61,823 bases of DNA from a virus. Its lineage: Duplodnaviria; Caudoviricetes. This document shows positions 45,185 through 61,823 of this stretch, piece by piece. Numbering within the stretch: position 1 is the stretch's first letter; each line of letters starts with the position of its first letter. The notes below the pieces were generated by a model that was not told where the DNA came from, ran no database searches, and saw nothing but the letters and a program-made list of their open reading frames with translations. The translations under genes were made by a program, and so were the position numbers. Where the stretch lies: IMG/VR virus record IMGVR_UViG_3300022928_000025, positions 1-61,823 of that record. One strand, given 5' to 3'.

Positions 45185-45213
45185 TTGACCATAACTATTA
45201 GCAACGCTAATAT
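45185..45213 (+). promoter_or_regulatory. Operator/promoter TTGACC-17-TAATAT with palindrome TATTAG-CAACG-CTAATA
   Basis: Upstream of the replication operon; degenerate second copy at 45161-45177. Confidence 0.75.
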
Positions 45214-45232
45214 CATAACCCTTGGAGGTTGC

Positions 45233-45448: not shown

Positions 45449-45749
45449 CAAAACATTTGCTAAAATTATGTATGCCAATTCACGGCATGTAAGCTCACAT
45501 GATTGGTCTTTGTTACCTAACACCCCACTTATAAGTATTATTAGTGATGATGTTGATACTTATTTCTTGCTCGTACCGGAAGACAGTTATCACCTTCACC
45601 AAAGCCTCATAGACTTTGGATTCTCATTCGCGTTTGTTTCTCTGTTGCAGGTAGCAGTTAGAAACAGCGCTGCGTGGATACACTTCTCACCTACAAACCC
45701 ATTGATTTCCGGCATTCATGTGTTCTCACAAGAGGACATTGTTCAATGA
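45396..45749 (+). CDS. Hypothetical protein
   Basis: 117-aa ORF in the operon; start uncertain. Confidence 0.5.
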   Translation: MSIQYTQQEIIPSTIPFSKTFAKIMYANSRHVSSHDWSLLPNTPLISIISDDVDTYFLLVPEDSYHLHQSLIDFGFSFAFVSLLQVAVRNSAAWIHFSPTNPLISGIHVFSQEDIVQ

Positions 45750-45976
45750 GTTCTTTCACCGCACAAATTCAAGAGAAAGACGAAGACCGCCAAAGAATAG
45801 AATCCCATATACAGGCCTATTTAGCAGCGGGCGGCACTATCACTCAAGTGCCCCGTGGCTATATGGCCAAACATGCCGAAGATGATTATATAGATAGAAA
45901 GCGTGCCGCTGAGAATTCACTCAAGCTTCGGTTCTCTTTTAATTCCAGTAACAAAGATCGAAATCTAACCCATTAA
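45746..45976 (+). CDS. SutA-like RNA-polymerase-binding domain protein
   Basis: 'RQRIESHIQAYLAAGGTITQVP' resembles the SutA C-terminal 'EFL.RGG.VQ' motif. Confidence 0.55.
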   Translation: MSSFTAQIQEKDEDRQRIESHIQAYLAAGGTITQVPRGYMAKHAEDDYIDRKRAAENSLKLRFSFNSSNKDRNLTH

Positions 45977-45987
45977 GGAGAGTTACT

Positions 45988-47787
45988 ATGTTAGTAACTC
46001 TTGATTTCGAGACTTACTTTGACGTCCGTCTATCTTTAACTAAGATGACTACGATGCAGTACATCAACGACCCCGAATTTAAAGTTTGGGGCGCTTCTTT
46101 GAAGTTTGATGACTTACCCGCAGAGTGGTACGGCGAATCAGATATAGAAGAGGCTATCTCTCAGGTCAACTGGGATGAAGCTTCTTTACTGTGCCACAAC
46201 ACAGCATTTGACGGGGCAGTTCTTGCTCAGCATTACGGACACACCCCCAAATACTATCTAGATACGAGCTCAATGGCGCGTGGCATTTATCCTGGACATT
46301 CGTCCTCGTTAAAGAATACAGCCATTAGAGTATTCCCTGATGATGAATCAAAGCGCAAAGGCGATGACTTATCTAAAGCAAAAGGTATCTACGACTTACC
46401 TCCTGAGATTGAAGAGGCTCTGGCTTCGTACTGCGTGCAAGACAGCGAACTTACTTATGCCATCTATCAGGCAATAAAAGACAACCTTCCACAGTCTGAA
46501 ATGGATCTTATCGATCAAACAATACGCATGTTTGTCGAACCAGAATTGATCCTTGACCGTGAGCGTTTAACGATCTACATGGACGGGGAAAAAGCCAACT
46601 CGGAAAAAGCTATATCAGACTCAGGTGTAGCGCGAGAAGTTCTATCCTCAAACGCCAAGTTCTCTCTCTACATAGAAGAGACGCTAGGCTTAACAGTACC
46701 CACTAAGAAGTCCCCTACTACAGGTAAAGACATTCCCGCGCTCGGTAAAAACGACGCAGGCTTTCAACAGCTAGCCAAGATGTACCCGCAGCACAAGCAT
46801 GTATGGGACGCAAGAACAGCAGTCAAGTCTCGTCTTAAGGAGACACGAGCTAAGCGCTTCTTAGACGCAGCTAACCCTGATAATAAGATTGGCATACCAC
46901 TTCGCTACTATGCAGCTCACACAGGACGCTACGGCGGCTCTGACAAACTTAATTTTCAAAATATGCCCAGAGGCTCAGAACTCAGAAAATGCCTTTGTTC
47001 TCCCAAAGGGCATTATATATACGTTGCAGACTTATCAAATATAGAAGCGAGGATGCTTGCATGGTTATCTGGTCAAGATGACTTACTAGAGCAATTCCGA
47101 ACTGGGACTGATGTCTATTCAGCCTTTGCTTCGTCTATCTATGACCGAGAGATAAATAAGGATGATGATCCCACTGAGCGTTTCGTAGGAAAAACCGCTG
47201 TACTCGGCCTTGGCTACGGCATGGGATGGAAGAAATTCCAAAGCACCCTTGCTCTTGGTGCAGCAGGCCCAGTTGTAGAAGTCCAAGACGAGAAAGCGTG
47301 GCAGATCGTTAATGCTTATCGTTCGAAATTCTGGCGCATACCGCATTTATGGTCTGTCTGTAGTCAGTTTTTAATCGATATGCTCTCAGGCTCTGACAAC
47401 GCATACAGTGTTCTTAGAACTGAGAAGAATAAGATCATACTCCCTAACTCAATGTGTCTTTACTACGAAGGGCTAACCAACACTCGCGACGGTTTCCAGT
47501 TCTCTTCCGGTAATAAGACTACTTACACATATGGCGGCAAGATTACAGAAAATGTCGTTCAAGCTCTTAGCAGGATTGTTGTCACAGACGCTCTCCTGCG
47601 CATTTCTAAGATAGCGGACATCAAAGTCTGCCTCACAGTCCACGATGAGATTGTTTGCATAGCTCCTGAAGAAAATCCAGAACAGCGTCTGCAACAAATC
47701 ATCGACACTATGTGCATCGCACCTAGTTGGGCCGAAGACCTTCCCCTCGCCGCCGAGGGCGGCTTCGACAGAGCATACTCTAAATGA
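45988..47787 (+). CDS. polA: DNA polymerase family A with 3'-5' exonuclease
   Basis: ExoI LDFET; HTGRYGG; motif A DLSNIEAR; motif B GKTAVLGLGYG; motif C VHDE. Confidence 0.93.
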   Translation: MLVTLDFETYFDVRLSLTKMTTMQYINDPEFKVWGASLKFDDLPAEWYGESDIEEAISQVNWDEASLLCHNTAFDGAVLAQHYGHTPKYYLDTSSMARGIYPGHSSSLKNTAIRVFPDDESKRKGDDLSKAKGIYDLPPEIEEALASYCVQDSELTYAIYQAIKDNLPQSEMDLIDQTIRMFVEPELILDRERLTIYMDGEKANSEKAISDSGVAREVLSSNAKFSLYIEETLGLTVPTKKSPTTGKDIPALGKNDAGFQQLAKMYPQHKHVWDARTAVKSRLKETRAKRFLDAANPDNKIGIPLRYYAAHTGRYGGSDKLNFQNMPRGSELRKCLCSPKGHYIYVADLSNIEARMLAWLSGQDDLLEQFRTGTDVYSAFASSIYDREINKDDDPTERFVGKTAVLGLGYGMGWKKFQSTLALGAAGPVVEVQDEKAWQIVNAYRSKFWRIPHLWSVCSQFLIDMLSGSDNAYSVLRTEKNKIILPNSMCLYYEGLTNTRDGFQFSSGNKTTYTYGGKITENVVQALSRIVVTDALLRISKIADIKVCLTVHDEIVCIAPEENPEQRLQQIIDTMCIAPSWAEDLPLAAEGGFDRAYSK

Positions 47788-47981
47788 CCAGATTAGTATT
47801 AACGCGAAAGACAGATGAAGAAGTAATTATTTCAGATAACAGCGGAAGTGTTGTCTGTTCTATCACTGTTAATAAAGTAGATAGAGGAAACGTAAGACTG
47901 TGTTTTGAGGCTGACTCAGACCTGCGGATAGATAGGAAGGAAGTTTTTTTATCTAAAAAGAAAAACAACGAATTGGGGTAG
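47784..47981 (+). CDS. csrA: Carbon storage regulator CsrA/RsmA homologue
   Basis: 'LVLTRK..E.VII...ITV..V..GNVRL.FEA...I.RKEV'; ATGA-coupled to polA. Confidence 0.82.
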   Translation: MTRLVLTRKTDEEVIISDNSGSVVCSITVNKVDRGNVRLCFEADSDLRIDRKEVFLSKKKNNELG

Positions 47982-47988
47982 GTGACAT

Positions 47989-50484
47989 ATGCAAGTTACT
48001 TTCCTCGAAGCGTCTAGCTCCACAACTCTTTCGAAGACTATATCGGGTCTGACTACAAAGCCATACCCTTTCGTTAAGAACGTTACGTCTCACAAATACG
48101 ATAACGTTGATATCGCACGCCTATACACTTTAATAGACCACCACGCTAACCTTGGCCATTGTCTATTAAAAGGAAACCCTGCAATTGATCTAGTTGATAG
48201 GAGCCGAGCCGGCAGCGTTCGTCGCCAGGATCTTAATCAGCTTCTAGTACTAGACTTTGACGGCATAAATCATCCTGCTCATATATGTCAGAAGGCATAC
48301 ACGCAAGCAGATGTTATTAGGTTAGCTGAAGTCATAATTAACCAGTTGCCTCCAGCGCTTAAAGAAGTGACCTACATAGCACAAGCCAGCAGTTCATTGG
48401 GTTTTAAGGGTGACAAGCTTAGCTTACATATAATCTTTAAGCTTAACTATGCACTGCCCCCTGCTACACAAAAACTTTGGCTTCAGAATACAAACTTCGA
48501 AACGCCTCTTTTAGCAGACCAGATAGGGCTATCAGTTAACGGACAAAGTCTTACTTGGCCGCTCGACGCTAGTCTTGCTGATAACTCTAAGCTCATATTT
48601 ATAGCGCCTCCCGTGTTTGAGAACGGTGCTGTAGACCCTTTCCCCTCGCCTAGTGAGCGGATAGTGCTAGTCCAAAAAGAGAAGCAAGAGCTCGCTTTAG
48701 ATCAGCTAGTCAATCTCAGCCCTGAAATTGTTCATAACAAATCTATAGAGTTTAAAAACAAACTCCGATCTGATCGTGGCTATAGCCGCCGTAAAGAAAA
48801 AATCTCAACTGTTAATGTAAACAACAGAGCAGAAGAGGTTCTCAGCAATCCCGATCGAATGACTATATCTATTGCTAATCAGACGTATCTACCTTGGGTT
48901 AACTGCAACATAAACTCTGGCAACTCAGCTGCATACTACTTCAGCTTAGAGCGCCCAAGTTATATGTATAACTTCAAAGGTGAACCTATATTCGAAATTG
49001 AAAAAGCTGATCCTGATTTCTTTGCATCAATCCACGAAATATTTGAAGACTATTTCAAAGTAAATGGTAAGACCCTTTTACCCGTAGTCCTACGAGACTT
49101 TGATACCGACACCTATTTCAACGGGTTGTTTGATCCTAATAAATCACAGTTTGATGACACCTTCCCTTTAAGCCCTAGTTCACAGACTGGCATGGAAAGT
49201 TTCATGGCTACTCATGGTGCTTTGCCGCCTGACCAAGTTATGGATGCCAAGATATATTTTAATCCTACTGAGAAGGTGCCTACGGTTGACCTTAAACAGT
49301 TGCCCATGAAGATTAATCTCTATCGCAGAACTGAGTACATGATGCACCCAGCTCCTGTCGACTCAAGGCTTACTTTCGGTGATGCAATTAATCTTAAGGA
49401 CAAGACCCCTTTAATATACAAACTCCTCCATCACGTACTTGGTAATGGTGATCAAGAGTTCGAACGTTTCATTAACTGGCTTGCTTATGTCTTTCAGACT
49501 AGAGAGAAGACAGGTACGGCGTGGGTTTTCACTGGGGTCCAAGGCACAGGTAAAGGCATATTTTATAGCCACATACTTCGACCTCTCTTCGGGTCACACC
49601 ACGTCCCAATGAAATCTATCCAATCTATAGAAGAGCAGTTCAATAGTTATATGCGTCAAGCAATCTTCATGATTGTGGATGAGTTCCACATGGCCAGCGC
49701 TACCCAAGGCACAATGAAGATGGCAGATAAACTCAAAAATCAGATCACTGAACCTACTCAGACAATCAGGGCTATGCGATCAAATCAGATTGAAGTGCCC
49801 TCCTACACTAACTTTATCTTTCTTACTAACCGAGCAGATGCAGTAAAGATCGAAGAGACAGACAGGCGCTACAACATTGGCCCTCGCCAAGAAGTCACAC
49901 TCCTCGAGGCACACCCAGAAGTTATAGATAACTTAGACAAAATTGAATCAGAGTTGCCCTTGTTTGCCGGTTATCTGGCAACTTTTAAAGTGAGCAATCG
50001 ATTAGTTAAGACTCCTATTATTAATGAAGCTAAAGAGCTTATGCGACAGGTTTCCTTAACTGATATTGAAGAGTTCTTCCAAGCCTTTAGGCAAGGCGAC
50101 TTACCATACTTTACTGATGTATTAGACATCGATGTCACTGACGTAATGAAAGCCGGTGAGCATATGACAGCTAAGCGAACAATCAAATATTGGATAGCAC
50201 AATCTAAAGACCCCTACTGCATTATCAGTTATGACTCTATGCAAATTATCTACAACACCTTAGTAGCTACTCACACGACCAGAATGAGCCCTTTACAATT
50301 TAAAAAAATGGCTATGAAGAATGGCCTTACATCTTCACGCAAACGCCCACATGGCGCCCCTCGAGAAGTAAACCCTATAAGAGGAGTCGAAATTCATTGG
50401 CGCCTTTCTGAACTCGTTCGGCAAGAACTTATAGCACGTTACTTTACTGAGCAAACGGATAAAAGATTATTGGAGCCCGCATGA
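47989..50484 (+). CDS. Primase/SF3 helicase (DUF5906-like)
   Basis: N-terminal LDFD...SSS...LH prim-pol-like motifs; Walker A GVQGTGKG; Walker B IVDE; TN; DRRY. Confidence 0.85.
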   Translation: MQVTFLEASSSTTLSKTISGLTTKPYPFVKNVTSHKYDNVDIARLYTLIDHHANLGHCLLKGNPAIDLVDRSRAGSVRRQDLNQLLVLDFDGINHPAHICQKAYTQADVIRLAEVIINQLPPALKEVTYIAQASSSLGFKGDKLSLHIIFKLNYALPPATQKLWLQNTNFETPLLADQIGLSVNGQSLTWPLDASLADNSKLIFIAPPVFENGAVDPFPSPSERIVLVQKEKQELALDQLVNLSPEIVHNKSIEFKNKLRSDRGYSRRKEKISTVNVNNRAEEVLSNPDRMTISIANQTYLPWVNCNINSGNSAAYYFSLERPSYMYNFKGEPIFEIEKADPDFFASIHEIFEDYFKVNGKTLLPVVLRDFDTDTYFNGLFDPNKSQFDDTFPLSPSSQTGMESFMATHGALPPDQVMDAKIYFNPTEKVPTVDLKQLPMKINLYRRTEYMMHPAPVDSRLTFGDAINLKDKTPLIYKLLHHVLGNGDQEFERFINWLAYVFQTREKTGTAWVFTGVQGTGKGIFYSHILRPLFGSHHVPMKSIQSIEEQFNSYMRQAIFMIVDEFHMASATQGTMKMADKLKNQITEPTQTIRAMRSNQIEVPSYTNFIFLTNRADAVKIEETDRRYNIGPRQEVTLLEAHPEVIDNLDKIESELPLFAGYLATFKVSNRLVKTPIINEAKELMRQVSLTDIEEFFQAFRQGDLPYFTDVLDIDVTDVMKAGEHMTAKRTIKYWIAQSKDPYCIISYDSMQIIYNTLVATHTTRMSPLQFKKMAMKNGLTSSRKRPHGAPREVNPIRGVEIHWRLSELVRQELIARYFTEQTDKRLLEPA

Positions 50485-51233
50485 AAATTGAATTTGGCAC
50501 TGAGCCATTGAAAGACTACATCGAAGAAGCACCAGACTTAGGTGACATTCGTGCGTGGTCCTACTCCTCTCTCAAGACTTTCGAGCAATGTCCATATCGT
50601 GTGTATATACAGAAAGTTAAAAAGATATCAGAAGATAGCGGTCCAGCAGCCGAAAGAGGCACGCAGATACACCAGCAAGCTGAGGATTATGTTAACGGCA
50701 CGCTTGGTGAATTCCCAGACACCCTTGCTAAATTTAAAACTCAATTTGAACAGCTTCGTGAGTTGTTTATCGAAGCCAAAGTAGAGCTCGAAGGTGAATG
50801 GGGATTTACTCTCGACTGGGCACCTACTGGCTGGCTCGTTGGCGACACATGGGCACGCATCAAGCTCGATGCTTTGGTTAATGAAGATGAAACCTCAGCC
50901 CGAGTGATTGACTACAAGACAGGCAAGAAGTGGGGCAACGAGATACCTCACGGCCAGCAAGCTCTGCTGTATGCCATCGCAACATTCTTACGATACCCAC
51001 ACCTCGAGCATGCACGAACCGAGCTGTGGTATCTCGATAAAGGCGAGACAACTATCAAAGATTTCTCTCGCAACGACGCGTTAGCTTTCCTACCAGGAAT
51101 TTATAAACGCGCCATCACCATGACTACCGCCAAAGACTTTCCTCCTAAACCAAGTGAAAGTGCCTGTCGCTGGTGTAGTTATAAAAATCCAACTGAAGAT
51201 GAGCCTGCTCCGTGCAGGTGGGGGGTAGCATGA
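50481..51233 (+). CDS. PD-(D/E)XK exonuclease (Cas4/RecB-like)
   Basis: 'WSYSS...F.QCP', 'RGT.IH', 'KLDA...IDYKTG', 'Q..LY', 'CRWC'. Confidence 0.85.
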   Translation: MKIEFGTEPLKDYIEEAPDLGDIRAWSYSSLKTFEQCPYRVYIQKVKKISEDSGPAAERGTQIHQQAEDYVNGTLGEFPDTLAKFKTQFEQLRELFIEAKVELEGEWGFTLDWAPTGWLVGDTWARIKLDALVNEDETSARVIDYKTGKKWGNEIPHGQQALLYAIATFLRYPHLEHARTELWYLDKGETTIKDFSRNDALAFLPGIYKRAITMTTAKDFPPKPSESACRWCSYKNPTEDEPAPCRWGVA

Positions 51234-51583
51234 TCGAAGATCCAGTATTAGCAGCAGAAGCACGTCACGATTACATGCAGTCAGAGTGGGAAAAACACTG
51301 GGACTCGTATGAAGCAACTCACGAGTACAAAGAACATTTGCAAGCTGAATTCGAAAATCTCGTCAGAGATCCTGATAATTTTTGGGAAGCTTGGGGTTAT
51401 GACGGGTTTTCTGCTTATGCCCCTGCAGACAGAATCACAAAAATAGAAGCTGATTTAATGACTGCAGTAATTGCTCAGGACTATGACTATTTAGGCCGCT
51501 TCATTTCATCTCAGTTCACACACTACTTCACGTCAACCGCAGAGGACAAAGTTAGGGAAAATTATGACCATACCACTCATTAA
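51230..51583 (+). CDS. Hypothetical protein
   Basis: ATGA-coupled to the nuclease gene. Confidence 0.6.
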   Translation: MIEDPVLAAEARHDYMQSEWEKHWDSYEATHEYKEHLQAEFENLVRDPDNFWEAWGYDGFSAYAPADRITKIEADLMTAVIAQDYDYLGRFISSQFTHYFTSTAEDKVRENYDHTTH

Positions 51584-51725
51584 AAAAATTCAATTATCAA
51601 TTATCTCCTTATTATTTATAGCCATTGGGCTTTCATTATTTAGCCACGCAGTAAGCCTTGCATTCATAGGCTTGCTTGCGTTCGGCCTAATATTTCTTGC
51701 GACACAAATCATTCGGAGTGATTGA
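51564..51725 (+). CDS. 53-aa two-TM membrane protein (not in ORF track)
   Basis: MTIPLIKKIQLSIISLLFIAIGLSLFSHAVSLAFIGLLAFGLIFLATQIIRSD. Confidence 0.5.
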   Translation: MTIPLIKKIQLSIISLLFIAIGLSLFSHAVSLAFIGLLAFGLIFLATQIIRSD

Positions 51726-51812
51726 TGACCCAGTTAATCTTGCGCGTAATTAACGTTATCGAAGTCTTATCTATTTATTACGCTATCAAACACAAACGTC
51801 AAGGAGACCGCA

Positions 51813-52076
51813 ATGCTACTGAACAACAACAACATCAAGCGGATACATGTCAACCAGCACAACATCCGCAGCAACCTCAAGAACAATCACAACCTACCAC
51901 CACTGACTGTTAAAACTTCTAAATCAAACATTATCTGCCATGACGTTGTTATTCATGGCTCATCTCGTGTCGTGTACTCACCTGATAAACCCTTGTCATG
52001 TGGCGCGCGAGTATGGATAGAAACACACTCACCCATTGAAACCACGGAGGATCAACCATGTTCATTACAGGTTTAA
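51813..52076 (+). CDS. Conserved hypothetical phage protein
   Basis: 'IHVNQH.IR.N...VY.PDKPLSCGARVWIET'. Confidence 0.7.
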   Translation: MLLNNNNIKRIHVNQHNIRSNLKNNHNLPPLTVKTSKSNIICHDVVIHGSSRVVYSPDKPLSCGARVWIETHSPIETTEDQPCSLQV

Positions 52077-52348
52077 TTGCCGCCCTCGGCATGCTTTTTC
52101 TTATTTTCAAGTTCGGTATTCGTAAAGTTATTTCTTACGACATCTTCTTTGACATAGCTATCACCGGCTTTTTGCTCTGGTCTTTCGCCGGCACATACTC
52201 TGGCATGATGGCAGCTATGTTCGGCGGCATGCTTGTGTCAATCGTGTTGTTTGTTATGAAACGCACTATGACTCACGAGCGCCTTGGCTTTTCAAAGCGC
52301 CTTAAGTTCCCTTACTTCAGTTTCGGATGGCAGGAGATTCAGCCGTAG
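52058..52348 (+). CDS. Membrane protein
   Basis: Three hydrophobic segments; 'GTYSGMMAA'. Confidence 0.7.
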   Translation: MFITGLIAALGMLFLIFKFGIRKVISYDIFFDIAITGFLLWSFAGTYSGMMAAMFGGMLVSIVLFVMKRTMTHERLGFSKRLKFPYFSFGWQEIQP

Positions 52349-52528
52349 TGCCTAAACGTCACCCTCAAATGTTTTTTACTTACCAAGACATTACCTATCG
52401 CTACGAGCTTCATACAGATCCGCCCGAAGCGATGTATTGGTCTACTTATCGAATCAAACCTAGCCAACTTAAAATCTTTGACGCCAATGGAAAGCAAGTG
52501 TTTGGCGAAGCCAAGGAGCAATTATTGA

Positions 52529-53260
52529 ATGACATTGACAGCGAGCGACCTAATAACAACTGACCGAACCCACCGTACTAGATACCTTAAATCTATATCA
52601 GCGCCTGACGAAAATATGCTCAAGCCTGCTTCTCACAATAAAAAACTCGGCGGCAAAGTAGCCATTAAAAAATGGCAGCACATGCCAATGTATGCTTTGA
52701 CCCTCGAAGAGCGGCACAGTTGCACTACATCGTGTGCGCAATACACTATCTGCTACGGTAACAACATGCCGTTTGCCAAGCGCCACGATCATACTGACCC
52801 CGCTTTCTTCAAGAAACTCGCTCAAAGCATACAAGCTGTTGCTTCCCAGAAGAAAAATGCAGACGGTTTTGTAGTACGGCTGCACGTACTTGGCGACTTC
52901 TTTAGTGAAAAGTATGTATCAGCTTGGCAATTGGCACTTATCAAGCATCAAGGGTTACGTGTCTTTGGGTATACACACCATCGGCACGACTCCCCTATCG
53001 GTAAGCGCCTTGCAGGACTAAATCAACTCTACCCAGACCGTTTCCAAATTCGTTTTAGCGACGACATGGGCACTCAATTCAGGGCGCGAGTAATACAAGG
53101 CACTTATGACAAGTCACTTAAACACTTTATCAATTACGACAAACAAGAGGTACAGAACGATGAACTCGTTTGCCCAGAACAACTTGGTAAGACAAGCGGC
53201 TGTTCAACCTGCGGCTATTGCTGGTCAAGCTCAAAACCAGTCATTTTTCTTGCCCACTAG
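52529..53260 (+). CDS. GP88-like (radical-SAM-related) protein
   Basis: 'N.KLG', C-x3-C-x5-CY, 'RLHVLGDF', 'GYT', C-terminal CP...C..C..CW. Confidence 0.65.
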   Translation: MTLTASDLITTDRTHRTRYLKSISAPDENMLKPASHNKKLGGKVAIKKWQHMPMYALTLEERHSCTTSCAQYTICYGNNMPFAKRHDHTDPAFFKKLAQSIQAVASQKKNADGFVVRLHVLGDFFSEKYVSAWQLALIKHQGLRVFGYTHHRHDSPIGKRLAGLNQLYPDRFQIRFSDDMGTQFRARVIQGTYDKSLKHFINYDKQEVQNDELVCPEQLGKTSGCSTCGYCWSSSKPVIFLAH

Positions 53261-53278
53261 TATTAGTAATGCTAATAT
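53250..53278 (+). promoter_or_regulatory. Operator/promoter TTGCCC-17-TAATAT with palindrome TATTAG-TAATG-CTAATA
   Basis: Upstream of the helicase-to-repressor gene block. Confidence 0.75.
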
Positions 53279-53303
53279 TATGGTCCGAAAAGATGGATCT
53301 GGT

Positions 53304-54650
53304 ATGGAAGCATTCGCGCATCAAACAAAGACTACAGAGCACATACTCGCTCATCCCCGTAGTCTCATCACATCTGACCCAGGAACTGGCAAAACCAGAT
53401 CCGTTATCGATGCTTTTGCTGTACGCGGCGGTAAGATGTTAGTTCTTGCCCCGCTTTCTATATTGCAAGCTAGCTGGGGAGACGACATTGATAAATTCTC
53501 TCCAAGCCTATCTTACTCAATAGCCTATGCCAAAAATCGTGACAAAGCGTTTAACTCTGACGCTCAGGTTGTTATTACTAATCACGACGCGGTTAAGTGG
53601 CTCCTTAAGAACAAGCAGCTGCTATCTAGTTTTGACACCATTTGCATCGACGAGTTTACAGCCTTTAAGAACAAAGACTCTCAGCGCAGCAAAGCCCTAG
53701 CAAAGCTTATACAAACCTTTAACTTCCGCGTTGCTATGTCCGGTACGCCAAACAGCAACACTATACTGGACATTTGGCACCCAACATTCCTAATGGACGA
53801 TGGCGAGCGATTGGGTAGACGCTTTTATTCGTTTCGTTCACACGTCTGTACCTCTCGCTTCAATGGTTTTGCAAATGAGTGGGTCGACAAGGAAGACTCT
53901 GAAGAAATAGTCGCTGCTGCACTTAGCGACATTAACATTCGCTACTCTCTTGAAGACTGTATCGATATGCCACCTCAGAGTTTCCATACCATGCACACTG
54001 AGCTGCCTCCGCAAATCAGGCAGGCTTACGAAACACTTGCCCAAGACAACGTGTTGTACACCGGTGCAGCAACAATCAATGCCGTTAACGCCGGCGCCAA
54101 AGTCAAAAAGCTTTTACAGCTGTGTACTGGCGCTATCTATGACGAGAACGGTGAGTCACAGAAAATACACACAGAGCGTTATGAGTTAGTCATTGATCTA
54201 GTCGAGGCTAGGAAGCAGTCGTTAGTTGCCTTCAACTGGAAACATGAGCGCAAGGCACTTACCGAGTTAGCTGACAAACGCAAAATTAAATACGCAGTTA
54301 TCGACGGCGACACACCCGCCCACAAACGTGGAGATATAGTAGACAGGTTACAAGCCGGTCAGCTGCAAGTCGTCTTTGCCCACCCACAGTCTGCCGGCCA
54401 CGGTCTCACAATGACCAAAGCGACAGCAGTAATCTGGGCTTCACCTACTTACAACGCAGAACATTACCAACAATTTAATCGACGCATCTATCGCGCCGGA
54501 CAGACTAAGAAGACAGAAGTAATTCACATAGCCGCCAAGGATACGTGGGAACCCGACGTCTACGACAAGCTGTCTCACAAAGTAAGCAAGATGGATGACC
54601 TATTACTTATCTTAAACAAACTCCATAAGGACGGACCAAATGACCATTAA
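53304..54650 (+). CDS. SNF2-like (SF2) helicase
   Basis: HQ Q-motif, DPGTGKT, IDE, SGTP, GHGLT, QFNRRIYRAGQ; start moved to MEAFAHQ. Confidence 0.9.
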   Translation: MEAFAHQTKTTEHILAHPRSLITSDPGTGKTRSVIDAFAVRGGKMLVLAPLSILQASWGDDIDKFSPSLSYSIAYAKNRDKAFNSDAQVVITNHDAVKWLLKNKQLLSSFDTICIDEFTAFKNKDSQRSKALAKLIQTFNFRVAMSGTPNSNTILDIWHPTFLMDDGERLGRRFYSFRSHVCTSRFNGFANEWVDKEDSEEIVAAALSDINIRYSLEDCIDMPPQSFHTMHTELPPQIRQAYETLAQDNVLYTGAATINAVNAGAKVKKLLQLCTGAIYDENGESQKIHTERYELVIDLVEARKQSLVAFNWKHERKALTELADKRKIKYAVIDGDTPAHKRGDIVDRLQAGQLQVVFAHPQSAGHGLTMTKATAVIWASPTYNAEHYQQFNRRIYRAGQTKKTEVIHIAAKDTWEPDVYDKLSHKVSKMDDLLLILNKLHKDGPNDH

Positions 54651-55005
54651 TGACTTAATCAATGCACGCTTAGATATTCGCCACAAACTCGCAGATCTTT
54701 CTAAGCAAGAAAAAGCACTCAAAGCTGAACAATCTGAATTAGATTGGCAGCTTATGACCAAATTGGACGATCAGGGCTTGTCACGCACGGCTAACGACAC
54801 AGCCACGATCTCCATAAGTGAAGAAGTTGTACCTGAAGTACAAGACTGGGATGAGTTGTATAAGTACATAACATCTACAGGCGACTTCTCGCTTGTGCAG
54901 CGGCGCATGTCGTCAACTGCATACAGAGAATTGAGGGGCCAAGGGGACAATGTTCCAGGCGTAGCAGATAGGACCATCCGAAAACTCAATGTTAGAGCAC
55001 TTTAA
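54640..55005 (+). CDS. Conserved phage coiled-coil protein
   Basis: 'V.DWD..Y.YI......LVQRR.S..AYRE......VPGV'. Confidence 0.7.
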   Translation: MTINDLINARLDIRHKLADLSKQEKALKAEQSELDWQLMTKLDDQGLSRTANDTATISISEEVVPEVQDWDELYKYITSTGDFSLVQRRMSSTAYRELRGQGDNVPGVADRTIRKLNVRAL

Positions 55006-55026
55006 TCAATTATTAGGTAATCAATT

Positions 55027-55731
55027 ATGACAGCTAAAACCACAGAAGTAGCAACAACAAAGCCAGCACCTTCATTCCTCGCAGCGACCAACGCTACACC
55101 TGACTTTCTAAAAGAAACTGGGCGCGGTAACGAAAACGTTGGCGACAACATTGAAATACCACGCATTAAACTTCTTCAGAAGATGAACGACGAGGTCGAC
55201 AAGCACCACTCTAATTACATCGAAGGCGCTCAACCAGGACAGTTCTTAAATGTTTTATCTAAAGAATTGCATGACGAGATCTATGTTATCTCAGTTAACT
55301 TCCGCGTTGAGTATGTCATCTGGCGAAAGCGTGAAGCAGGCGGCGGTAAGCAGGGAACATTTGACTCTCGACAAGAAGCACTTAACTGGATTTCAGAGCA
55401 GCCTGAGAAAGACCAAGCTACCTTTGACTTGTCAGAGAACCATCAACACTTGTTGCTGTGTTATGACGAAGTGACAGGATCTTTACGCAACACGCCATGC
55501 ATTATGGACTTCTCAGGCTCTAAGCTTCGCGTATCGAAGAACTGGAACTCTAAGATCCTCGAGCGCGGCGGCGACCGTTTCAGCACGATATGGAAGTTTA
55601 AACCGCAGATCCAGTCAAATGACAAGGGTTCATGGGTTAATATTGCCGCTGACTACATGGGTTTTGTTGCTAACGAAAATGATTATAAGCAAGCAGAAGA
55701 GCTGTATCTAAGCACCAATAATACTCACTAA
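55027..55731 (+). CDS. Putative single-stranded DNA-binding protein
   Basis: 'G.ENV...IPRIKLLQ', 'EY..W', 'SK.WNS', 'N.KG.W'; replication context. Confidence 0.6.
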   Translation: MTAKTTEVATTKPAPSFLAATNATPDFLKETGRGNENVGDNIEIPRIKLLQKMNDEVDKHHSNYIEGAQPGQFLNVLSKELHDEIYVISVNFRVEYVIWRKREAGGGKQGTFDSRQEALNWISEQPEKDQATFDLSENHQHLLLCYDEVTGSLRNTPCIMDFSGSKLRVSKNWNSKILERGGDRFSTIWKFKPQIQSNDKGSWVNIAADYMGFVANENDYKQAEELYLSTNNTH

Positions 55732-55753
55732 TTACACAAACTGCTGCTAATTA

Positions 55754-56143
55754 ATGAACGAGCATAGCTTCATCAAAGCTATTCATAAGAGTCTTCCAGC
55801 TGAAGTTTATCGCTGGAAGATTCATGACACTTTTACCGGAGGGGTCCCAGATACCCTGTATGCTGGCCCTTCGGGTATTCTGTTTGTAGAATATAAGTGG
55901 CTGAAATCATTACCTAAAAAAGAAAATACCCCGATTAATCTGGGGCTATCTCAACTCCAAATCAATTGGCTAGATAAGTTTCACTCCTATAGTCAAAACG
56001 TAGCAGTAGCCGTAGGGTACTCAGATGGCGTCTTATTATTCACTAATAAAGATTGGACAAAGGATATTAACGTAGCTAATATCCAAAAATATAGCCTTTC
56101 ACGTAAAGACTATATAAGTTTCATAATTAACACTACGCAGTAA
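55754..56143 (+). CDS. VRR-NUC / Holliday-junction-resolvase-like nuclease
   Basis: 'MNE', 'GVPD', 'FVEYK', 'LSQLQ..W'. Confidence 0.8.
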   Translation: MNEHSFIKAIHKSLPAEVYRWKIHDTFTGGVPDTLYAGPSGILFVEYKWLKSLPKKENTPINLGLSQLQINWLDKFHSYSQNVAVAVGYSDGVLLFTNKDWTKDINVANIQKYSLSRKDYISFIINTTQ

Positions 56144-56194
56144 GGATTACTGCAACTACCCAACTACGCAGTAAGGATTACTGCAGCAACGGAG
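56132..56194 (+). promoter_or_regulatory. Two identical GGA-loop hairpins plus ACGGA RBS: candidate CsrA-binding leader
   Basis: ACTACGCAGTAAGGATTACTGCA at 56132-56154 and 56163-56185, each folding as GCAGTA-AGGAT-TACTGC. Confidence 0.7.
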
Positions 56195-56199
56195 CATGT

Positions 56200-56814
56200 A
56201 TGCAAACCGTACCGAAGCCAATAACGAACGATGTTAAGACTTCAAATCTCAAGAAAGTTTGGAACGAAAAGAAACGAATTCTTGATATCACTCAGCAGAC
56301 AGCTGCTCAACAACTAGGGATTACGCAAGGAGCATTTTCTCAGTATCTCAATGGCCATTGCCCACTTAATGAAAAGGCTACTATGAAAATAGCCAAATTC
56401 TTAGGTGTTCACCCTGAAGTCATTGATCCTAATTTCAGAGATAACGTTAATATTATAAAACGTCATCAATGGAAAGCGGTTGTTTCTCACACGTCATCAG
56501 ACGCTAATAAAGAACTAGGTGAACTGGTAGAAAGTAAGTTTGATGAGCAGCCTTTGTATATAAGAATAGATAAGGTTACGAAGATTTTTGATCCTAACGG
56601 TGAACTTATATCGATCCTACCGAAAGAAGCTTTATTAGCGCTTATAGACATCCGAAATCCGAAGTACCCCGTCAAAAGAAAATGCAAAGATAACATATAT
56701 GCAATTGTGAGTAAGAATAAAAAATCTTACTCTTTTATATGTGATTCAAGGCCACCCGCCTATGGAAACAATACAGTTACTATTTATCAAGTGGTAAATG
56801 TTGTTTATTTGTAA
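56200..56814 (+). CDS. CI/XRE-family HTH transcriptional regulator (putative repressor)
   Basis: 'LK.VW.EKK..L.ITQQ.AA..LGITQGAFSQYLNG..PLN' lambda CI-like N-domain. Confidence 0.85.
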   Translation: MQTVPKPITNDVKTSNLKKVWNEKKRILDITQQTAAQQLGITQGAFSQYLNGHCPLNEKATMKIAKFLGVHPEVIDPNFRDNVNIIKRHQWKAVVSHTSSDANKELGELVESKFDEQPLYIRIDKVTKIFDPNGELISILPKEALLALIDIRNPKYPVKRKCKDNIYAIVSKNKKSYSFICDSRPPAYGNNTVTIYQVVNVVYL

Positions 56815-56855
56815 CACCTTTTGGCTCCTTTTAATTAAACAGTTCAAGTCTACTT

Positions 56856-56889
56856 AATTAGTTGTACTAATAATTTATTTATATATACT
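56856..56889 (+). promoter_or_regulatory. Operator/promoter AATTAG-TTGTA-CTAATA upstream of the excisionase
   Basis: Near-identical to the 38157 site; TTGTAC-16-TATACT. Confidence 0.62.
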
Positions 56890-56926
56890 AATTAAATAGC
56901 TTTTTAGTTATTAAAACAGGAGTTCT

Positions 56927-57154
56927 TTGATGCTTTCTAAACTATTACTTCAGTGTCATGGCCCTTTAATGGACATGGACGACTTAGCAGGCGCGCTTAA
57001 AATAAAACGTGAGTCTCTCTACCAACGAATTTACTACGGGAAACTAGAGATTCCCCACATGAAGAACGGAAAGAAGTATCTATTCAAAACACAGGATGTC
57101 GCTGAATACATACAAAGTGAGTTTGAACGAGCTACTTCTTTAACTACCCATTGA
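56927..57154 (+). CDS. xis: Excisionase-like HTH protein
   Basis: 'LM..DDLA..L.I.RESLYQ.I..G.L..P..K.GKKYLF...DV'; convergent with the integrase. Confidence 0.7.
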   Translation: MMLSKLLLQCHGPLMDMDDLAGALKIKRESLYQRIYYGKLEIPHMKNGKKYLFKTQDVAEYIQSEFERATSLTTH

Positions 57155-58190
57155 GCTTATCTACTAAAGACGACGCATTTAGCTGTGTGTACCGCAGCAG
57201 CTGCTTCCAATCTTTATGTCCTGATATTCTCGCCACCTCTTGGATCTGAAGACCTTTTTCAAAGAACCGAGAGACAGCTTCGTGCCGAAGATCGTGGAAG
57301 TGAAGTTCTGGTAACCCAGCTTCTTCCCGTACCTTCACGAACCTATCACTAATTGATTGAGCTAACTTCACCCCTGGAAAGACAGCGCCTGTCCGTTTAC
57401 TTTCAACCGGCACCCAAGTCTTAAGAACCTCCAACGCCTTATTTGACACTGGTATGATCTGGTTATTACCCATCTTTTCACTTGGGTGCTTCCGGTCTTT
57501 AATAAAAATAGTGCTCTGTTTGAAGTCGACATCCTTCCACTGCAACGCTTGGATCTCTCCTTGCCGCATGCCAGTTTCAACTGCCAGCATAATGATTGGC
57601 CCTATCCATCCCGAGTGGTGCTTTAAGCTGGCCTCCATAAGCTGTTTCAGTTCCTGATCACTTACTCTACGCTCCCTCCTGCGACTACCACCCACCAAAC
57701 CTATCTTTGACAGCGCTGACAGCGCGTCTCTTGCTGGGTTAGATGGCAGGTCTACGCCCCACAAAGTCCTAGCGTGGTCTATGGTCTGGGCGACGTAAGT
57801 AAGCTGCTGGTTAAGAGTAGACCTGCTGATTGGCGCTCGGCCCTTGTACCCTGCCCTTCGCTTCTCGGCATATTTAAATAACATGTCGGGCGTAAGCTGA
57901 ATAACACGCACACCTTTAAAATGCTCGGCTGTCATTTTAATGGTGGTCATCTTGCTACGTGCAAAGGGTCGATGGGGGTGAACTTCGTCGATGTACCGAT
58001 GTAGCAGGTAGTCTAGCGTGTAGCCTTCGACTGCTTTAGATTTAGGCAGTGGTTCAGACTTAAGTTCTGCCTTTTTAAGGACAGCCCAATTCTCTGCAGC
58101 TGCTTTTGTGGGGAAGGTTTTATTATATCGCTTACGGTTATGAGAGATGACGCATAACCAGCTGTTACCCCGTCTTGTAATACTCGCCAT
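57144..58190 (-). CDS. int: Tyrosine integrase
   Basis: Catalytic R (TGMRQGE), K, HDLRH, ISGH, LRY. Confidence 0.93.
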   Translation of the reverse strand: MASITRRGNSWLCVISHNRKRYNKTFPTKAAAENWAVLKKAELKSEPLPKSKAVEGYTLDYLLHRYIDEVHPHRPFARSKMTTIKMTAEHFKGVRVIQLTPDMLFKYAEKRRAGYKGRAPISRSTLNQQLTYVAQTIDHARTLWGVDLPSNPARDALSALSKIGLVGGSRRRERRVSDQELKQLMEASLKHHSGWIGPIIMLAVETGMRQGEIQALQWKDVDFKQSTIFIKDRKHPSEKMGNNQIIPVSNKALEVLKTWVPVESKRTGAVFPGVKLAQSISDRFVKVREEAGLPELHFHDLRHEAVSRFFEKGLQIQEVARISGHKDWKQLLRYTQLNASSLVDKLNG

Positions 58191-58210
58191 ACATGGCTCC
58201 CGAAACTTAA

Positions 58211-58444
58211 TTTCGACAGCTGTCGAAACAATTAATCGTTATAGTTTCGACATTATGGCGTTTCGACAAATTTTCGACAAGGGAAAAATAAATGTATATA
58301 AATCATGGGTTTGAAATTTGGCGGAGAGAGAGGGATTTAACTCTTTAACTTATTGATATATCGAGTTTTACCTCTATATATCTCTATTATTCTTGTGAGA
58401 CTTTTCTATTTAGTACTATTTGCTTTTTCGACAAAGTTGCGACA
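58211..58444. other. attP region: tRNA-Ser 3'-end core, TTTCGACA arm-type repeats, IHF sites
   Basis: Core TGGCGGAGAGAGAGGGATT at 58319-58337 (reverse complement AATCCCTCTCTCTCCGCCA); TTTCGACA at 58211, 58245, 58261, 58272, 58426; IHF consensus at 58346-58358 (-). Confidence 0.8.
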
Positions 58445-58489
58445 CGGAGAGAGCGACTCTCGAATCGTTACCCTCTCCTATTCGCTCCG

Positions 58490-58594
58490 TCACTTGGCCT
58501 TTGACGCGTAACCCTTGGCGGCTTTACCTTTCGGCATTTTGTCTTTTTTGGGTGGCTGATTCAACGTGCATTTTTTACCTTTGTGCATGGTCAT
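58490..58594 (-). CDS. 34-aa Lys-rich peptide (not in ORF track)
   Basis: AAGGAG RBS; MTMHKGKKCTLNQPPKKDKMPKGKAAKGYASKAK; ATGA overlap. Confidence 0.5.
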   Translation of the reverse strand: MTMHKGKKCTLNQPPKKDKMPKGKAAKGYASKAK

Positions 58595-58794
58595 ACTCCT
58601 TTGGGTCTAGAGGTCTTTATCGCTTGCCTAGTGGCAAGCACACTGGTCATTTTGTCGCCGAGAGAAATGCCTTGGCTGGCTAGTTCGGCAAATGCTTCGA
58701 AGATAGCTTCTTGCGCAGCGCCTTCGCTTTCCAGTTTTTCATAAGCGTTCTTACGGGACTCGATCGGGTCTTTCGTTAGGTTTCTATGCGACAT
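58591..58794 (-). CDS. Small tail-assembly-chaperone-like protein
   Basis: 'RKNAY......Q.EAI......IK...PK' pattern; downstream of the fibre. Confidence 0.55.
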   Translation of the reverse strand: MSHRNLTKDPIESRKNAYEKLESEGAAQEAIFEAFAELASQGISLGDKMTSVLATRQAIKTSRPKGV

Positions 58795-59170
58795 TTATAA
58801 TTAGCCTTTTTGAGACATACATAGGATGTCTAAGCTCAAAGAAATAGTCCCCCCCTACATCAGCGCTGAACGAGAGCTCTCCATCATCTTCAGGTGTTAC
58901 TACTGCGTCGGGCCATCTCACCTTTGTTCCAGTGGGAATATTAGTAACACTTATTGTGCTGCCTAACGTGGCAGGAGAAACGTTAAGTTCTGGGAACTCG
59001 GTCTTATCTACTATCGCACCGCCGCTTATGTACTGTGTATCGTAATTTGCGAATACATCAGTGGCCATATACAACTGACCTTGGTCAATGTTCATTTCAA
59101 TTTCTTCTTCTGAACAAGAGATGGCTTTGACAAGAGTACCGTCGGTTTCATAGACAGCATAAATATTCAT
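58784..59170 (-). CDS. Fibre-associated hypothetical protein
   Basis: 128 aa; ATGA-coupled to the tail fibre. Confidence 0.65.
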   Translation of the reverse strand: MNIYAVYETDGTLVKAISCSEEEIEMNIDQGQLYMATDVFANYDTQYISGGAIVDKTEFPELNVSPATLGSTISVTNIPTGTKVRWPDAVVTPEDDGELSFSADVGGDYFFELRHPMYVSKRLIINVA

Positions 59171-61823
59171 CGTTTAACCCCCAACAAAGAAATAAACCAG
59201 TTACCACCAATAGCGCCCGAACCCGTACTGCTGCCGTAAATACGGTAAGTAGTATTCCCAGTAGACGGTGTATGAACAAAGCCCGCACTCATACAGTCAG
59301 AGAAACCTTGAATGCTAGACTGTCCAACTATACCTTCTGCCGAACCTGCAGCTATTCTAAGTCCACGAGTAACTTCGTTAGTACCAGTTGATGTAGCAAT
59401 AATGTTTAGCTGACCAAAAAATTGCACTTGAGATGGTAGGAGTGACGCGGTAGAACCCCAGTTAATTGTGATAGATCCGATTTGGGTCCATCCCGATCCT
59501 ATAGAAACACCGCTTCCAGCTGATATAGCGCGAGGGACAGTGATATTTTCGCCGGCGACATTTAAAGTTTGTATTTGAGCACTGCCAATCTTTGCAGTGG
59601 TTATTTGAGCATCACCAATCTTAGCGCTGGTTATTTGAGCCTCACCAATCTTAGCGGTCGTTATAGTTGCGTTGGCTATCTTGGCCCCCGTCACGGCCAG
59701 GTTATCAATTTTTCCTGTAGTCACAGCTAAGTCGGCAATCTTTGCGACGTCTACTGCTAGATCTCCAATTTTGGCAGTAGTAATAGTACCGTTCTGTATG
59801 AATGCGTCTTTTATATAAACCCCAGTGAGAACAGTTTCTCCGCCAATCGTTGTTGGGCTCGTCCTTATAATAAAAGGAATATCGAAATTTTGAGTCGTAG
59901 AACCGATAGCAAACTCATCGGCTCTTACATAAAACTTAGAAGAAGTGCTGTTATTAACGAGCCCAAACCCCGCAACCATGCCATTTGAATCAATTCTTAC
60001 TGAGTACTCGCCCTCAAGCCCATCTATAGACGTGGAGTTCTGGCTTACTGTAGCCGACAACCCATTCACGTTTGTAGTGACTTGGTTCACTGATGAAGCG
60101 AGCGTGCTTACCTGACCCGTGACTGAGTTGACACTCGACTCGACAGTGTTTATCTGTTGAACGAGCCCTGAAGTACTGCTGCCGATAGTAATCTCGATAG
60201 CATTTATATCTTGGGCATTGGCAGATATTGTGCCCGCTTGCGAAGTCACAGTCGTTGTCAGGTTAGATAAACCAGTCGCCGTAGCAGTCAATCCTGTAGC
60301 CGGATCGTTAACACTAGACTCGAGGGTGTTAAGCCGAGAACCGTGGGAAGTAATTACCCCGTTTTGTGTTGACACAGTAGTGCTGAGGCTCGATAACCCT
60401 CCAGCTGTCGCATTCACACCGGTAGTTGGATCATTGACCGTTGTCTCAAGGCTGGTGATATCTAAGGCGTTGGTAGAGATATTGTCGCCTTGTTGAGTAA
60501 CCGTATTTGACAACGTAGAAAGAGCGCCAGCCGTAGCAGACAAACCGGTTGTCGGATGGTTAACAGTTGTCTCGAGGCTGGTGATATCGGTAGCATTGGT
60601 AGAGATGTTGTCACCCTGCTGAGTAACGGTCGTAGACAAGTTTGACAGCGCGCTAGCTGTCGCATCAACTCCGGTTGTCGGGTGGTTTACAGTTGTTTCA
60701 AGATTCGTAATGTCAGAAGCGTTAGTTGTAATACTATTGCCCTGCTGCGTCACTGTTGTTTGCAGACCAGACAAAGCACTAGCTGTCGCATCAACTCCGG
60801 TTGTCGGGTTGTTAACAGTTGTCTCAAGAGCAGTAATGTCAGAGGCATTAGTTGTAATACTATTGCCCTGCTGCGTCACTGTTGTTTCTAGACCAGACAA
60901 AGCGGTGGCTGTCGCATCAACTCCGGTTGTCGGATGATTGACCGTTGTTTCGAGAGCAGTAATATCAGAAGCGTTTGTGGCGGTAGTTTGTTGTAGAGTG
61001 GTTATATTTGAACTGTTCGAACCCACAGTCGTATTCAGATTAGTTATTAGTGAAGTTTGCGTCGCAGTCACTGTCTCTAACGACGCAATATCATTTTCGT
61101 TTGCCGCAATGCTCAACTGAGCTGCCGTTATAGCTCCCTGTGCAGTAGCTAAATTGGACTGAGTTATAGCTAAATTTGATTCAGCCGTAGCTAAATTGGT
61201 TTCAACCGTAGATACAGCAAGCTCAATATCAGCAATGCTAAGCTCCTGCGCATCTATTAGATCTATTTTGTCAATCAAACCCTGATAAAACGCATCCTCA
61301 GTTATCGAACCCGTAAGCAACTCAAGAATAAATTCGACATCGATAGCCGTTTCAGCAAACGTGCCAGCATTTGAGTTCCAAGGCCCCTTCTGGTTACGAG
61401 TATTTACATGCCGCGCCCAATAGTAGTTCGCTTGCCCACCGCCAACTTGGTCGGTAAACATCATGCCGTGCGAAACACCTACTAAGACTGCATCCGCCAG
61501 CTGGTCAACAGTATGCCGCCAAACTTCTGTGTAAGCATGGGGAAAATAAGTAGGTTGGTCCCACTCCAAAATAACAACACTGTAAGCGCCGGTCGCTTCA
61601 AACCCCGTAGGCGCCGGTGGCAAACTTGTCTCGTTAACGTCTGTACCAATTGGCAGCAGACTAGACTGAGACTGCCCAAGAATGAACGGTTTGCCCTCGA
61701 CAGCTAACCCGCTGTCAATTAACTCACGCGCAGTGATTGCTCTGTCCCTTGAGTCGCCTCGGCGCCCCAAACGAATTTCGAGAGCCTCTGCGACAGACTC
61801 TAAGTACCGCCTCATCGCGGGCG
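59167..61823 (-). CDS. Tail fibre / host-specificity protein, allele B (5' truncated)
   Basis: N- and C-termini nearly identical to 98..2899; different shaft repeats. Confidence 0.8.
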   Translation of the reverse strand, partial: PAMRRYLESVAEALEIRLGRRGDSRDRAITARELIDSGLAVEGKPFILGQSQSSLLPIGTDVNETSLPPAPTGFEATGAYSVVILEWDQPTYFPHAYTEVWRHTVDQLADAVLVGVSHGMMFTDQVGGGQANYYWARHVNTRNQKGPWNSNAGTFAETAIDVEFILELLTGSITEDAFYQGLIDKIDLIDAQELSIADIELAVSTVETNLATAESNLAITQSNLATAQGAITAAQLSIAANENDIASLETVTATQTSLITNLNTTVGSNSSNITTLQQTTATNASDITALETTVNHPTTGVDATATALSGLETTVTQQGNSITTNASDITALETTVNNPTTGVDATASALSGLQTTVTQQGNSITTNASDITNLETTVNHPTTGVDATASALSNLSTTVTQQGDNISTNATDITSLETTVNHPTTGLSATAGALSTLSNTVTQQGDNISTNALDITSLETTVNDPTTGVNATAGGLSSLSTTVSTQNGVITSHGSRLNTLESSVNDPATGLTATATGLSNLTTTVTSQAGTISANAQDINAIEITIGSSTSGLVQQINTVESSVNSVTGQVSTLASSVNQVTTNVNGLSATVSQNSTSIDGLEGEYSVRIDSNGMVAGFGLVNNSTSSKFYVRADEFAIGSTTQNFDIPFIIRTSPTTIGGETVLTGVYIKDAFIQNGTITTAKIGDLAVDVAKIADLAVTTGKIDNLAVTGAKIANATITTAKIGEAQITSAKIGDAQITTAKIGSAQIQTLNVAGENITVPRAISAGSGVSIGSGWTQIGSITINWGSTASLLPSQVQFFGQLNIIATSTGTNEVTRGLRIAAGSAEGIVGQSSIQGFSDCMSAGFVHTPSTGNTTYRIYGSSTGSGAIGGNWFISLLGVKR
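60290..60975. repeat. 126-bp (42-aa) tandem repeats in the fibre B shaft
   Basis: gtcgcatcaactccggttgtcgg at 60659, 60785 and 60911. Confidence 0.9.

Follow-up and report, generated by a model that had tools for sequence, protein, structure and literature searches.

Candidate CsrA-type control of a repressor-like gene by GGA-loop hairpins in a marine phage carrying csrA

CsrA-family proteins favour hairpin loops that contain GGA, and one dimer can span two sites separated by tens of nucleotides; glgC of Escherichia coli and hcnA of Pseudomonas are mRNA leaders repressed by CsrA or RsmA. Here we describe a leader that compares with these in the IMG/VR virus record IMGVR_UViG_3300022928_000025, which belongs to a phage described as marine and was analysed over its whole length of 61,823 bases (the window). 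A 23-nt unit carrying a GGA-loop hairpin is present twice before a gene encoding a 204-residue helix-turn-helix (HTH) regulator, the Shine–Dalgarno (SD) sequence of that gene contains a further GGA, and a csrA homologue is located in the replication operon of the same genome. Our best single reading, held tentatively at a probability of about 0.4, is that the hairpins and the SD sequence are binding sites through which a CsrA-family protein represses translation of the regulator.

Phage-borne csrA genes have been catalogued since 2020. Sobrero and Valverde (2020, PMC7366521) counted 30 csrA+ phages among 2,517 genomes, and Campa et al. (2021, PMC8450108) listed many phage RsmA/CsrA genes, which they proposed to repress host CRISPR-Cas. 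Excerpts of Adler et al. (2025, PMC11879866) describe the life-cycle role of phage csrA as previously untested and report smaller plaques upon knock-down; phage or prophage csrA genes appear only as annotations in excerpts of three further articles (PMC12038007, PMC10269572 and PMC11295528). No published description of CsrA control of a phage repressor was found in full-text searches of articles; the supplementary csrA lists of PMC7366521 and PMC8450108 might include this record or its relatives. We propose that known CsrA-type translational repression is here newly extended to a phage's own regulator by a phage-borne CsrA. The leader offers a concrete candidate target, small in size (35–66 nt before the phage's own repressor-like gene) and available in natural variants with one or two hairpins, with a remodelled loop, or, in an outgroup, with no hairpin.

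The hairpin repeat in the regulator leader

The leader comprises the following features.

55754 to 56143, + strand: upstream open reading frame (ORF) of 129 residues, whose weak PHROG matches carry helicase or endonuclease annotations and whose end falls within hairpin 1
56098 to 56127, + strand: promoter-like site TTCACG-18-CATAAT, weak, with only 9 of 12 consensus matches
56132 to 56154, + strand: repeat unit 1 and hairpin 1, with stem 56137–56143 paired to 56147–56153 and GGA loop 56144–56146
56163 to 56185, + strand: repeat unit 2 and hairpin 2, with stem 56168–56174 paired to 56178–56184 and GGA loop 56175–56177; wholly non-coding
56189 to 56210, + strand: SD and start-codon segment, with the SD sequence ACGGAG at 56189–56194 (ACGGA at 56189–56193)
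56200 to 56814, + strand: gene for the 204-residue regulator, with a λ-CI-like N-terminal HTH domain and a β-rich C-terminal domain

The unit ACTACGCAGTAAGGATTACTGCA occurs in two exact copies, at 56132–56154 and 56163–56185, as an earlier note made from the sequence alone had stated; the copies remain 93% alike over 28 nt, and their spacing is 31 nt. With up to three mismatches allowed, the 17-nt core (GCAGTAA-GGA-TTACTGC) is confined to these two positions of the window, giving four matches with both strands counted against 0.13 expected, a number reached in none of 100 shuffles. Each unit alone folds as a 7-bp stem with a GGA triloop (−7.6 kcal/mol), and the hairpin drawn in the earlier note, GCAGUA-AGGAU-UACUGC with AAGGA at its apex, is the equivalent fold once the weak A–U closing pair opens. 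In the minimum-energy fold of the two-copy leader, arms 1 and 4 instead pair with each other, as do arms 2 and 3, and both GGAs are left unpaired in a 3 × 3 internal loop. The folding z-score of the 131-nt leader is −2.61, and 2 of 200 shuffles fold as well. The tail of unit 1 has CCA at the position where unit 2 and the single-copy relatives have an SD-like GGA; the hairpins are still identical.

The repeat is closely integrated with the signals of the two flanking genes. The TAA stop codon of the upstream ORF (56141–56143) sits within the 5′ arm of hairpin 1, and hairpin 2 is located 16 nt upstream of the GGA of the SD sequence. The GGAG of the latter lies five nucleotides before the ATG at 56200; the sequence is well placed, and the assignment of the third ANGGA as the SD sequence stands. 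A small hairpin is predicted around the start codon, in which ACGG (56189–56192) pairs with CCGU (56207–56210). Altogether, three A(N)GGA motifs fall within 62 nt, two at the hairpin tips and one in the SD sequence. Three such motifs occur in 2 of 70 gene leaders (−70 to +5), and 42 of the 70 have none.

The hairpins do not correspond to the familiar element classes that were considered. The covariance models of Rfam 15 gave no match at the hairpins, and their only three matches in 55600–57300 are at chance level (E 0.79–3.7). A mobile or repetitive extragenic palindromic (REP)-like element is rejected, as the viral collection holds only three exact matches, all in unrelated contexts. No terminator-like site was found in a scan of the interval between the upstream ORF and the HTH gene (56132–56199); the stems are followed by AACUAC and AGCAAC and not by the U tract of an intrinsic terminator. 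A terminator-like hairpin with a T run is present at 56709–56732, within the 3′ part of the HTH coding sequence and approximately 80 nt before its stop codon. Elsewhere in the window, a hairpin (AAUCAU-UCGGA-GUGAUU, 51707–51727; stem-loop 51707–51723) places an SD-like GGAG in its loop, two nucleotides before the ATG at 51725; it is identical in L044–L046 and has a partly broken stem that is not kept in L050/L051 (loci described below).

Conservation of the hairpin among relatives

The HTH protein has eight homologues of similar length in a set of 5.8 billion proteins, and the comparison covered nine metagenome loci (L043–L051) together with 41 viral-contig loci encoding more distant homologues. 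In the close relatives L043–L049 the HTH protein is 80–94% identical to that of the window, and all seven loci keep one or two hairpins at the junction, with GGA in the loop. The window and these relatives provide ten hairpin instances (seven distinct rows), with stabilities of −3.0 to −7.6 kcal/mol, and GGA is unpaired at the tip in all ten. Every relative that keeps the stem thus keeps the GGA; stems lacking a GGA loop, which the earlier note had named as counter-evidence, were not seen among them. The twin arrangement described in that note is not a fixed feature, as five of the seven close loci have a single hairpin.

The variants are informative about what is retained. L043 and L048 have a single copy identical to that of the window. 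L044, L045 and L049 share a single remodelled copy, GCAGT-AGGGA-ACTGC, in which the stem is reduced from 7 to 5 bp, the stop codon is TAG and the loop retains GGA. The single copy of L046 carries two C-to-T changes that give G·U pairs, and L047 has two copies with a period of 26 nt, the first of which has a TGA stop codon and two G·U pairs. In all close relatives, the upstream ORF terminates inside the stem, at a TAA, TAG or TGA codon. The linker between the hairpin and the SD sequence varies (AACA, AGCA, ACA or TTTA), with GGA and ACGGAGCATGT invariant; the segment corresponding to 56189–56210 is identical in all seven close loci, and ACGGAG follows the proximal loop GGA by 14–16 nt. In L049, the HTH gene (1596–1913) is cut to 105 residues by a change of frame after residue ~89, which may reflect either misassembly or a defective gene copy.

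On the + strand, 47 of 47 stem cells are paired across the ten instances. Three of the seven stem pairs vary, on one side only and from G–C or A–U to G·U; all four cells with a changed base stay paired, and the adjacent 4-nt linker changes freely. These G·U changes pair only in + strand RNA, since they leave an A–C mismatch on the other strand and in a symmetric DNA site, which argues for an RNA element read from the + strand. The hairpins are very probably a real element of this kind under some constraint, and the element is probably functional.

The same changes bear on the idea that the 17-bp palindromes are DNA operators of the HTH protein, acting in autoregulation, or of another phage DNA-binding protein. 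Such a site would account for a perfect 7+3+7 palindrome, and for two copies that are spaced by 31 bp, or roughly three turns of the helix, shortly after the promoter-like site. However, the HTH domain is near-invariant, yet the half-site spacing shifts by 2 bp in L044, L045 and L049, and in L046 and L047 one arm drifts by G·U-type changes that break the DNA symmetry. Most relatives have a single copy, the window holds no others at up to three mismatches, and the only matches to the palindrome in 2.9 million viral contigs are three unrelated ones. A different palindrome, TTAGY-N3-RCTAA (see below), is a better operator candidate, and we consider a DNA-operator role for the hairpin palindromes highly improbable.

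In a maximum-likelihood tree of the HTH gene, the two-hairpin leaders (the window and L047) are placed in separate subclades beside one-hairpin relatives, with support of 100/100 for the subclade of the window and 86/94 for the L046 and L047 pair. Because the two-hairpin leaders belong to different subclades and their repeat periods differ (31 versus 26 nt), the doubling probably arose twice independently. The nearest outgroup loci, L050 and L051, encode an HTH protein that is 54–63% identical to that of the window. In more distant relatives, the upstream ORF runs on to the HTH start and carries its SD sequence, often CAGGAGGAT; because the two genes abut there and the SD sequence lies inside the upstream ORF, the hairpin and a new spacer seem to have arisen jointly. 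At the corresponding position of these relatives, GCAG...CTGC is already present as coding sequence (ACG CAG CAC TGC). A hairpin inside the upstream ORF of L007–L011 (CCGCGA-AAGGAAG-UCGCGG) is regarded as incidental; it is missing in the sister loci L015 and L018, and its GGA derives from Arg-Lys-Glu codons.

These observations would also be compatible with a + strand RNA element that acts independently of CsrA, as an intercistronic stem-loop that uncouples the two genes, as protection of an mRNA end against nucleases, or as a standby or decoy site in which AAGGA, being complementary to the anti-SD sequence, attracts ribosomes. The conservation of the hairpin with pairing kept on the + strand only, the stop codon inside the stem, and the joint origin of hairpin and spacer are all accommodated, and use of the promoter-like site would place the hairpin at the 5′ end of the transcript, with a start near the first repeat unit. 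Such roles leave unexplained why GGA is retained as the stem and loop are remodelled from AAGGAUU to AGGGA, as well as the two separate doublings, and a 7-bp stem of −3.0 to −7.6 kcal/mol would be a weak barrier to nucleases. A CsrA-independent role is possible, if doubtful.

The regulator, the csrA gene and the proposed control

The gene behind the leader had been called CI-like, a description that stands for the N-terminal HTH domain; the S24 peptidase domain of CI repressors, C-terminal and with a Ser-Lys dyad, was not detected. The AlphaFold model of the protein has a mean predicted local distance difference test (pLDDT) score of 75.9, and the best Foldseek matches of the full protein are λ CI and a λ–186 hybrid repressor. 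The N-terminal domain aligns with λ CI N-terminal domain chains over ~75 columns (Foldseek TM 0.73–0.79 on the target with 28–30% identity, and 0.67–0.79 over all such matches); for the β-rich C-terminal domain, CI matches are full-length and of low TM only. Pfam HTH_3 scores 21.9 bits, slightly below its cut-off of 23, and the protein matches PHROG families of transcriptional regulators and repressors; Peptidase_S24 gave no match at E ≤ 0.01. HTH residues 16–79 are almost invariant among the eight close homologues, and the recognition helix region TQGAFSQYLN is invariant across a family alignment of 29 sequences. We infer that the protein acts as the lysogeny repressor.

A distinct palindrome, TTAGY-N3-RCTAA (13 nt), has eight intergenic sites in the window, where 0.41 would be expected, and each of them falls at a gene boundary.

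15155, 29410 and 35306: sites in the structural block
35837: site in the divergent region
38159, 45198 and 53263: sites in the early and replication block
56858 to 56870, + strand: the palindrome TTAGTTGTACTAA, a site between the HTH and excisionase-like genes that may serve the HTH protein as an operator

Loci throughout the phage family (L003–L051) contain several copies of the palindrome each, in syntenic places, one of which lies approximately 2.9 kb upstream of the HTH gene, and it is located 46 nt upstream of the HTH start in L019–L021, L030, L031, L036 and L038. Because it is kept family-wide alongside an invariant recognition helix, it is likely to be the operator of the HTH protein, or else another family-wide regulatory site. 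As an operator, it would support the role of the protein as a repressor or regulator, and would set the GGA hairpins further apart from DNA binding.

The other partner in the proposed control is encoded upstream.

45988 to 47787, + strand block: gene for a family A DNA polymerase (polA)
47784 to 47981, + strand: phage csrA homologue (65 residues), whose ATG overlaps the polA stop codon (ATGA)

The CsrA/RsmA homologue reported earlier is borne out by a match to Pfam PF02599 at 43.7 bits, above the cut-off of 27 (42.1 bits in a separate match), and by a match to the PHROG family 'CsrA-like regulator'; the overlap with polA places it in the replication module, as had been claimed. In the CsrA family, RNA binding is ascribed to an N-terminal LTR(K/R) stretch and a C-terminal stretch of the R-E-E-I type. 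HMMER alignments to the CsrA/RsmE chains 5dmb_D, 2jpp_A and 1t3o_A show that LVLTRK, VRL and DRKEVF (the DRKEV/HREEI stretch) are kept. The protein has no match in 50,697 GenBank phage records. A csrA homologue is present in 22 of the 25 family loci whose upstream sequence extends for 7 kb or more, where it shares the strand of the HTH gene and precedes it by 7.1–9.0 kb; the three others are L042, which has an unrelated S24-type CI, L033, and L044, where the contig stops 388 nt before the expected csrA place is reached. Judged by these loci, csrA is a core gene of the replication module of the phage family. Its presence whether or not the hairpin exists makes co-occurrence of the two, which had been suggested as a source of support, uninformative. 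The csrA coding sequence itself contains a 9-bp hairpin with a GCGGAAG loop (47833–47857), which could be an autoregulatory site or due to chance; L046 keeps the stem with the loop ACGGAAA, and it is not recognisable in L050/L051.

In the proposed mechanism, a dimer of a CsrA-family protein (of the phage, the host or both) would bind GGA at the hairpin tips, in the context AAGGAU or AGGGA, with one face on the proximal hairpin and the other on the ACGGAG SD sequence 14–16 nt downstream, a spacing that a CsrA dimer could bridge. The bridging dimer would block binding of the 30S subunit and lower translation of the regulator. Because the regulator gene follows the replication operon in the same orientation, with no terminator found between them, read-through in the lytic cycle would make regulator mRNA unless blocked. 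During lytic growth, CsrA made from the replication operon would silence this mRNA; in a lysogen, with the replication operon off, the regulator gene would be translated. The link to CsrA is plausible and specific, and circumstantial. A fuller version is more doubtful: that a family of uncultivated marine temperate phages has csrA translationally coupled to the DNA polymerase gene, and that phage-made CsrA acts in cis on its own CI-like mRNA in this clade, locking in lysis post-transcriptionally and leaving the decision open to host Csr and physiology.

Several observations weigh against control by CsrA. In the covariation check suggested earlier, one-sided G·U changes were seen in three of the seven stem pairs and two-sided compensatory changes in none, over ten hairpin instances; the shuffle control for stem pairing, in which 500 of 500 shuffles were equal, cannot separate structure from chance. 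The invariance of GGA alone is not statistically significant, at a rough estimate of ~9 changes over ~25 non-coding positions, and the coding sequence and stop codon account for part of the constraint on the 5′ arm of hairpin 1. The hairpin is confined to one shallow clade: the leaders of L050 and L051 are without a GGA-loop hairpin although csrA is present (CsrA 83% identical), and in the more distant csrA-bearing relatives the HTH start abuts the upstream ORF. As the hairpins are limited to one clade and csrA is family-wide, the family-wide role of csrA cannot depend on them. The phage CsrA is divergent, scoring 35 bits against NCBIfam equivalog cut-offs of 70–73, it carries a 5-residue insertion, and it has no sequence match in the Protein Data Bank (PDB) at E ≤ 0.01; that so divergent a protein keeps the RNA specificity of the family is an assumption. 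Finally, GGA-loop hairpins are not enriched across the genome (62 observed versus 73.7 ± 7.5 in 30 shuffles), and the idea of a genome-wide CsrA regulon in the phage was rejected on these grounds.

The shallow distribution and the missing compensatory changes are also what would be expected of an element with no function, a palindromic scrap left by truncation of the upstream ORF and doubled by replication slippage, whose apparent conservation reflects the youth of the clade. The identity of the two copies in the window, as after a recent duplication, and the pre-existing GCAG...CTGC coding sequence would fit this origin. It does not account for the changed stem cells, all four of which still pair while the 4-nt linker changes freely, for a unit 1 tail that has diverged (CCA versus GGA) while its hairpin stayed identical, or for doubling in two subclades, and we regard it as unlikely.

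If CsrA-type repression is correct, the leader would become the first target to be defined for a phage CsrA, and the lysis–lysogeny switch would acquire a layer controlled by an RNA-binding protein. A captured global RNA regulator would then control the phage's own developmental decision, and host Csr status could bias lysogeny in marine bacteria. Should the involvement of CsrA be refuted, the element would still represent a clear case of a young RNA hairpin undergoing duplication at the junction between two genes.

Genome setting and relation to known systems

The structural genes occupy the − strand from 98 to 35821, and the early and replication genes form a long + strand block from ~35981 to 57154. 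In this block, polA is followed by csrA, a DUF5906/VapE-like gene, an exonuclease gene, an SNF2 helicase gene, and Pam3 gp33-like and gp34-like genes; its end comprises the 129-residue ORF, the 204-residue HTH gene and an HTH_17 excisionase-like gene, next to the integrase gene.

56927 to 57154, + strand: HTH_17 (excisionase/AlpA-like) gene
57144 to 58190, − strand: tyrosine integrase gene

The polymerase of the phage shows only ~35% identity to its counterparts in the Pseudomonas phages KPP25 and phiR18, and the region itself had no match at the DNA level among 50,697 phage records. Neither the HTH alignment nor scans with an 882-residue flank protein found relatives in genome contigs, and the flank protein itself has weak coiled-coil or SMC-like matches only. 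No tRNA genes are present within the window. Recognisable host genes are absent from 58784–61823 and 98–2899, beyond the integrase. Instead of a prophage flanked by host DNA, the record may represent a free, permuted phage genome.

Further features of the genome include an ORF of 2,022 residues in the structural block (16362–22430) and a repeat-dense, non-coding stretch of 684 nt at 36688–37371. The latter contains five copies of CTGGCACACA, three of the inverse TGTGTGTCAG, and two of GGGACACTTATCAAG in tandem; the repeats are iteron-like and may mark an origin or a binding array for a partition protein or regulator. Adjoining the integrase gene, 58191–58450 contains at least five copies of TTTCGACA and one inverted copy, which may be arm-type integrase sites of attP.

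Contigs from RNA libraries of four salt-marsh metatranscriptome runs were compared with 44000–61823. They span the region of early and replication genes as well as int and some of csrA. The lowest summed contig depth in all four runs falls in the bins over 55900–57089, and three long contigs stop at 55808–55942. Because such contigs cannot show starts, ends, strand or level, and the libraries may contain DNA, no conclusion is drawn from them.

Among known repressors, λ CI is the closest in its N-terminal HTH domain, as judged by Foldseek comparison of the predicted model. Unlike λ CI, the phage protein has no S24 peptidase match, its operators and repressor function are predicted only, and its gene has the orientation of the early and replication genes and adjoins xis and int, rather than diverging from cro. 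The F116-like phage LKA5 was considered as a comparator and set aside, as its CI shares the HTH type but is found in the classical divergent CI/Cro layout.

The csrA gene resembles the phage-encoded CsrA/RsmA homologues of PMC7366521, PMC8450108 and PMC11879866 in being a small CsrA-family gene on a phage. Those articles, in the excerpts cited, list genes and propose host targets such as CRISPR-Cas, and describe no cis phage target.

The leader differs from those repressed by CsrA or RsmA in that its target is a phage regulator gene, the CsrA is phage-encoded and divergent and its binding putative, the preceding gene terminates within the hairpin, and the copy number is one or two. It resembles them in having GGA in short hairpin loops and a further one in the SD sequence, at a spacing of tens of nucleotides that fits bridging by a dimer, with a CsrA-family protein encoded in the same genome.

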